Positions 8,887 to 9,105 of a stretch of 10,419 bases of DNA are shown piece after piece. Under the pieces are notes generated by a model. That model was not told where the DNA came from. It saw only the letters and a list, made by a program, of their open reading frames with translations, and made no database searches. The position numbers and the translations under genes were made by a program. The stretch is from Escherichia coli (GTDB lineage Bacteria; Pseudomonadota; Gammaproteobacteria; Enterobacterales; Enterobacteriaceae), in the NCBI RefSeq assembly GCF_003334385.1, contig NZ_QOWN01000068.1; one strand, 5' to 3'. The first letter of the stretch is position 1. Each line of letters opens with the position of its first letter.

Positions 8887-9105
8887 ATGCAGAAACGAGA
8901 ACCCGTCATCATCGCGCCAGACTATACCGATGATGAACTTTATGAGTGGATGCACCAGAAAATTAATGCAGCGTAGGATCTGAAATGGGCCAATGAAGCC
9001 AGGGCTAAGCAGGCTGAAAATCTGTCCGCTCTGGAGCAGGATATCACTAATCTGGAAAAAGCAGCGGCATTAAGCATTGCCAGAATGATTACATACCCGC
9101 GTTAA
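8887..9105 (+). pseudogene. YdfC-like ORF (72 codon positions) interrupted by an in-frame amber codon
   Basis: ATG at 8887 (GAGGA Shine-Dalgarno) encodes 29 aa, then TAG at 8974-8976, then the same frame continues open for 42 more codons to TAA at 9103-9105. The total of 72 codons equals the recalled length of YdfC. Confidence 0.55.

Follow-up and report, generated by a model that had tools for sequence, protein, structure and literature searches.

A premature amber codon in ydfC, an accessory gene of lambdoid prophages in Escherichia coli

The prophage early region and the interrupted ydfC frame

The stretch of Escherichia coli DNA analyzed here (10,419 nucleotides, hereafter the window) comes from a lambdoid prophage and represents its early region. 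Genes for the Q antiterminator, RusA, a DUF968 protein, hok/sok, QueH, DUF977 and DUF1627 proteins, two replication proteins (one DnaC-like, the other O-like), YdaT and a small regulator lie on its minus strand, and a 139-aa regulator, ydfA, ydfB, ydfC, a 133-aa ORF and the DicF sRNA are encoded on the plus strand (Table 1). Beyond the window, an identical contig (L016) continues with dicB (PF05358), a DUF1482 gene and the gene of an 823-aa exonuclease. The interrupted ydfC follows ydfA and ydfB and precedes dicF and dicB, i.e., it has the place that the YdfC family occupies, and it is the third gene of a ydfA-ydfB-ydfC-(orf133)-dicF-dicB operon. DicF is found downstream of ydfC, as in the dicBF operon of Qin-like lambdoid prophages. 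This operon has been described for Qin, where ydfA, ydfB and ydfC were listed as "small proteins of unknown function" (PMC5069750). Later papers in the literature that we searched have assigned no native function to YdfC. In contrast to the window with its 133-aa ORF between ydfC and dicF, the published account of K-12 Qin gives only an untranslated region at this place (PMC5069750).

Table 1 Features of the ydfC locus in the window
Feature	Position	Strand	Basis
ydfA (DUF1391), intact, first gene of the operon	8572-8727	+	RefSeq annotation of relative L001; PHROG 751; Pfam PF07151 in relatives
ydfB, intact, 42 aa	8729-8857	+	RefSeq annotation of relative L001; PHROG
Shine-Dalgarno GAGGA of ydfC	8876-8880	+	6-nt spacer to ATG 8887-8889; direct read
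Truncated ydfC frame, 29 codons MQKREPVIIAPDYTDDELYEWMHQKINAA and premature TAG	8887-8976	+	ORF/translation
Mutated base, T here versus C in every intact allele (CAG Gln30 to TAG)	8974	+	Alignment; codon-30 table, 22 + 15 loci
ydfC remnant past the stop, codons 31-72 and TAA, identical to intact alleles	8977-9105	+	
133-aa ORF, function not assigned, intact, own Shine-Dalgarno GAGG 9118-9121	9128-9529	+	PHROG 1363; exact protein on many contigs
DicF sRNA gene	10104-10155	+	Rfam RF00039, 77 bits (gathering 48), E=4.7e-16, full model 1-52

Read directly on the plus strand, positions 8887 to 9105 hold an ATG and 28 sense codons, a TAG at 8974-8976, 42 in-frame sense codons and a TAA (9103-9105), with a second stop, TAG 9106-9108, directly 3'. 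A sequence-only reading made earlier had given exactly these coordinates and counts. It had also given 72 codons as the length of YdfC, and the RefSeq "protein YdfC" WP_001171930.1, with 219 nt or 72 codons, indeed equals the window total; the YdfC encoded by the Qin prophage of E. coli K-12 and its homologues in RefSeq (PHROG 1744) have this length too. The open frame of 42 codons by itself proves nothing, as about 13% of such stretches would be stop-free by chance ((61/64)^42), and the case hence rests on homology and identity. Compared with the gene of WP_001171930.1, 218 of 219 nt are identical in the window ydfC, and with the O157-type allele it shares 99.5% DNA identity. Between 8860 and 9130, 270 of 271 bases match the intact ydfC of E. 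coli strains 9000 and STEC005, the sole mismatch being T8974 in place of C, i.e., CAG (Gln30) to TAG. With one base in 271 differing from the intact alleles, the single-nucleotide CAG-to-TAG nonsense mutation proposed in the sequence-only reading was borne out; a C-to-T transition at 8974 turned the Gln codon 30 (CAG) to amber (TAG). A Dcm (CCWGG) hotspot at the mutated site was considered and rejected from the local sequence, GCGCAGGATC.

When codon 30 was restored, the protein matched phrog_1744 over positions 1-68 of 68 (E=1e-39); an NCBIfam search with YdfC gave no meaningful match, with one spurious hit at 16.6 bits. Unlike the members of the YdfC family, of which the uninterrupted frame has about 68-72 codons, the window allele has TAG at codon 30 and only 29 residues can be made. 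We therefore regard the window ydfC as a disrupted (pseudogene) allele and not as a functional family member.

The disruption does not extend to the surroundings of ydfC. ORF lengths in the window are those found in relatives (Q 273, RusA 126, DUF968 352, QueH 228, DUF1627 256, P-like 246, O-like 320, YdaT 141, regulators 93 and 139); the neighboring genes are intact in the window as well as in other carriers of the TAG, and ydfC is the sole broken gene in the window. In close relatives, including the TAG carrier L120, the prophage adjoins ompW and has an integrase. More distant prophages, which have just the Q antiterminator in common with the window, contain lysis, terminase and portal genes; a look-up with the Q protein retrieved nothing but such unrelated, widespread elements. 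Pseudogenization in a cryptic prophage had been suggested from the sequence. Its first half stands, as ydfC is disrupted by the TAG, but a cryptic prophage is not demonstrated because all other genes in the window are intact, and relatives carry an integrase; several disrupted or missing phage genes, the mark of a degraded prophage, were not found within the window.

The region has further features of its own. On the minus strand, a hok/sok type I toxin-antitoxin system comprises a sok RNA (3044-3219; Rfam RF01794, 120.5 bits) and a Hok-like ORF (2894-3106), which is hokD in relatives. A gene for a 228-aa QueH-type epoxyqueuosine reductase (3287-3973, minus strand) is situated among the nin-region genes and has the same annotation in BR1220. 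The 139-aa protein (7887-8306, plus strand) is encoded in the repressor position and matches PHROG 5736 "transcriptional regulator" (E=1e-69). Only in its last 50 residues is it similar to DicA (NCBIfam PRK09706, 24.5 bits against a cut-off of 101), and there was no precomputed Pfam HTH match for it. An inverted repeat of 16 pairs with a T-rich tail behind it (8349-8385, plus strand) lies between this regulator gene and ydfA and could be the terminator of the regulator gene or a regulatory site of ydfABC-dicF-dicB; L120 has a substitution at 8354 inside this repeat. An antisense ORF (9489-9806, minus strand; a hypothetical protein of 92 aa in relatives) shares about 40 nt with the 133-aa ORF at the latter's 3' end and is called consistently in RefSeq and metagenome assemblies.

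Carriers and history of the TAG allele

The identical TAG allele was found in six independent assemblies, in each case checked base by base: GCA_045884385.1, GCA_045949415.1, ERZ28646830, ERZ28668282, ERZ28591292 and ERZ28631468. TAG-carrier contigs were retrieved by exact-protein look-up with two neighboring proteins, ERZ28631468 being found later. These assemblies stem from different projects and sample types, isolates as well as gut metagenomes, and they have differing flanking haplotypes; GCA_045949415.1 is 100% identical to the window from 4887 to 10419 and probably represents the source of the window or its clone. The 29-aa product is present on 34 contigs (NCBI, ENA, Logan and JGI), with some of its records named "protein YdfC, partial", and the intact protein on at least 1000. 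Across 5,426 complete RefSeq E. coli genomes, a 41-mer centered on the T was not found, and neither IMG/VR nor the JGI metagenomes contained a T-specific 24-mer. In the GTDB representative genomes, a 30-mer with C or T at the site found neither allele; this pattern is too allele-specific and the search hence uninformative.

A single base that is missing from the complete genomes, from IMG/VR and from the JGI metagenomes might be taken for a sequencing or assembly error in a gene that is really intact, an alternative that the sequence-only reading had named. However, the k-mer absences show that the TAG allele is rare, not that it is an error. The same T occurs in six assemblies that differ in project, sample type and flanking haplotype, and the 29-aa product on contigs from four sources. 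Because the T recurs in independent assemblies, we consider a sequencing error excluded, and an intact gene behind a misread base is virtually out of the question.

To follow the history of the allele, window positions 6128-10419 were aligned for 12 sequences, seven with TAG and five with CAG. In these 12 sequences, T8974 is linked without exception to a block of differences in the right flank (10386-10409). As the co-segregation is with one right-flank haplotype, a single origin is the simplest reading, and the alignment points to T8974 having apparently arisen once. The TAG is found on two left replication-gene modules, which are about 160 mismatches apart, and with two types of the segment 10215-10257; further differences among TAG carriers concern part of ydfB in one of them and the nin region in L120. 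In all, recombination has brought the allele together with at least four different combinations of flanks. Since its carriers differ in flanking segments, it has survived several recombination events, and it would have persisted long enough for recombination onto several prophage backgrounds. The segment 10215-10257, just 3' of DicF, occurs in two sharply different versions among near-identical prophages, differing by about 14 substitutions and 4 inserted bases in 43 nt, and both were found with TAG.

In the complete genome CP055888.1, which has CAG, only position 8974 differs from the window between 6627 and 10290 (about 3.6 kb). CAG is likewise found in L126 and L128, the relatives that come closest over the full length, with 99.65-99.69% identity across 10.4 kb. 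From these near-identical CAG sequences we conclude that the TAG is derived and young relative to its backbone. The earlier description of the mutation as recent is thus right relative to the backbone, but the mutation is not private: it is inherited and found on several flanks. The TAG form of ydfC is, with high probability, a rare, real and vertically inherited nonsense allele of an accessory prophage gene.

Homologues of ydfC and other lesions in the gene

Megablast of the region against the 5,426 complete RefSeq E. coli genomes gave thousands of matches, which were annotated as ydfA (DUF1391), ydfB, "ydfC: protein YdfC" or hypothetical protein. A protein search with the intact sequence yielded 113 cluster representatives; the names given were all Escherichia (E. 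coli or E. albertii), and the cluster of the intact YdfC itself also includes the names E. fergusonii and Shigella sonnei. We aligned 24 diverse homologues. The full-length ones pass codon 30 and end at 65-94 aa, and there was one 41-aa in-frame deletion variant. Residue 30 is Q in close alleles, with CAG (Gln) as the codon in the closest ones, and N, S or R in distant ones. The stop is not conserved, i.e., every other allele has a sense codon for one of these four residues at this position (24 proteins; 101 loci / 24 haplotypes). The sequence-only reading had named two findings that would speak against it, homologues that end naturally at the equivalent position and downstream codons that lack similarity to YdfC C-termini. 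Neither was found: no full-length homologue ends at codon 30, and over the 42 codons past the stop, identity to the intact C-terminus is 100%.

Within the 24 window-type haplotypes, pN/pS was about 0.30 (11 synonymous and 13 non-synonymous segregating sites, plus the stop), and we hence conclude that intact ydfC is under some purifying selection and not simply junk. For codons 31-72, pN/pS was 0.24 in the window-type allele group, a value from a small number of sites (24 in all). Between divergent allele types, dN/dS was 0.5-1.0 for codons 23 to the end.

Independent disruption or loss of ydfC was also observed in related prophages. In L105 (Logan SRR8767864, 1501-1596), a 1-bp deletion has independently hit codon 30 (CAG to C-G) on a different allele background; the resulting 31-aa product is present on 9 contigs. 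The ydfC of L012 has a 1-bp deletion with a frameshift at codon 11. Two in-frame deletions, of residues 29-59 (P0103, 13 contigs) and 31-51 (P0131), have an end-point at codons 28-30, and as they are bounded by short direct repeats (GCAGCG, GCAGGAT), they suggest slippage. In BR1220 (L104), about 32 nt (L104:8997-9028) stand in place of window 8704-9127, a stretch of 424 nt that holds the end of ydfA together with ydfB and ydfC. This type of prophage is otherwise about 95% identical to the window and has the 133-aa ORF directly after ydfA; the other best whole-window matches have the same 96% coverage as BR1220, consistent with the same gap by coverage alone. Whereas the window allele arose by base substitution, all these lesions are indels or deletions, and they lie on different allele backgrounds. 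ydfC looks dispensable and repeatedly lost in related prophages.

In the protein alignment of the 24 homologues, conservation is highest in the N-terminal 29 residues. At the DNA level, the Shine-Dalgarno sequence and codons 1-22 have 93-97% identity between allele types and the remainder about 50-60%; dS is 0.08-0.19 for codons 1-22 versus 0.7 to >1.2 for the rest. Since dS is low there too, we attribute the N-terminal conservation to an intragenic mosaic junction and not to protein constraint. The 29-aa fragment as a functional core, as might be read from this conservation, was rejected, as synonymous sites are equally conserved. The block shared between ydfC alleles is about 95 nt long (window 8860-8955; cf. 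L106, L108 and L109 around 1470-1570) and is still present in L109, which has an unrelated upstream region; it might serve as a linker in recombination or be an RNA/DNA element that is conserved as such.

Consequence and meaning of the amber codon

An AlphaFold model of YdfC, built on the 24-sequence alignment (mean pLDDT 87.7), has a disordered tail (residues 1-14) and a single long helix (15-69). In a normal host, release factor 1 would end translation at codon 30 and leave a 29-residue fragment, which would keep the unstructured N-terminal tail and about 15 helix residues. The untranslated remnant encodes residues 31-69 of the predicted helix, and no in-frame restart codon was found in ydfC after the stop before Met67. 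With about 40 of about 55 predicted helix residues lost, the model suggests that the TAG allele is most likely a loss of function with a non-functional product. Such a loss of YdfC would be tolerated in TAG carriers because ydfC is dispensable.

The outcome would be different if the amber were read through, by a host suppressor tRNA, e.g., of the glnV (supE) type, or by programmed readthrough, so that full-length YdfC is made. With a supE-type suppressor, precisely the Gln of the ancestral protein would be regained, and the downstream 42 codons have no further lesions. However, an undamaged 3' part is equally expected of a young neutral lesion, as there are zero other changes of the backbone in about 3.6 kb, and a stop that is replaced by a sense codon in all other alleles is not a conserved readthrough signal. 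Within the window there is no tRNA; the tRNA pair downstream of Q in the L120 prophage is Met(CAT) and Arg(TCG), not CUA. Efficient amber suppressors are rare in natural isolates. Readthrough is therefore extremely improbable, and loss of function stays the preferred reading.

Apart from YdfC itself, the premature stop might affect genes further downstream. The newly untranslated stretch (8977-9127, 151 nt) has a C/G ratio of 0.89 and is not rut-like. As C is not enriched in it and the ORF that comes next has its own Shine-Dalgarno sequence, little Rho-dependent polarity on dicF and dicB would be expected. We considered such strong polarity and, from the sequence of this short gap, rated it unlikely.

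Truncation of YdfC could also have been selected, either because the 29-aa peptide is a functional core or because the stop dampens toxic dicF/dicB by polarity. Codon 30 was hit twice independently, by C to T in the window and by the 1-bp deletion in L105, two in-frame deletions begin or end at codons 28-30, no part of the protein is better conserved than the N-terminal 29 residues, and the dicBF operon is highly toxic when induced (PMC5069750). In contrast, the N-terminal conservation includes synonymous sites and reflects a low-divergence mosaic DNA block, the in-frame deletions between direct repeats suggest slippage, and elsewhere a lesion has done away with the N-terminus (L012) or with the gene as a whole (L104). 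Moreover, a short, non-C-rich untranslated stretch ahead of an independently initiated ORF does not favor polarity, and the TAG allele is rare. A selected truncation is thus very unlikely, and we find it slightly less probable still that the recurrent truncation at codons 28-31 means that the C-terminal helix is selectively shed. If this were true, shedding of the helix might leave a functional N-terminal micro-peptide or tune the expression of toxic dicF/dicB.

We conclude that the feature in the window is an ordinary nonsense polymorphism in an accessory, non-essential prophage gene. With its C-to-T change at the first base of a Gln codon (CAG to TAG), it is like classical amber alleles of lambdoid phage genes, which are suppressible in principle by a Gln-inserting supE-type tRNA. 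Unlike the classical laboratory ambers, it circulates naturally in prophages of wild and gut E. coli, and the gene that it affects is accessory and non-essential. Only two points are mildly curious, namely that codon 30 was independently hit a second time and that a mosaic junction lies inside the gene.

For annotation, the locus should be given as a ydfC pseudogene with an internal stop, and not as two ORFs or as a "partial" protein. The TAG allele could mark a lineage of a small prophage group, which adjoins ompW in close relatives. For the ydfC family, it adds one more case for a gene that is dispensable and repeatedly lost while dicF and dicB are kept.
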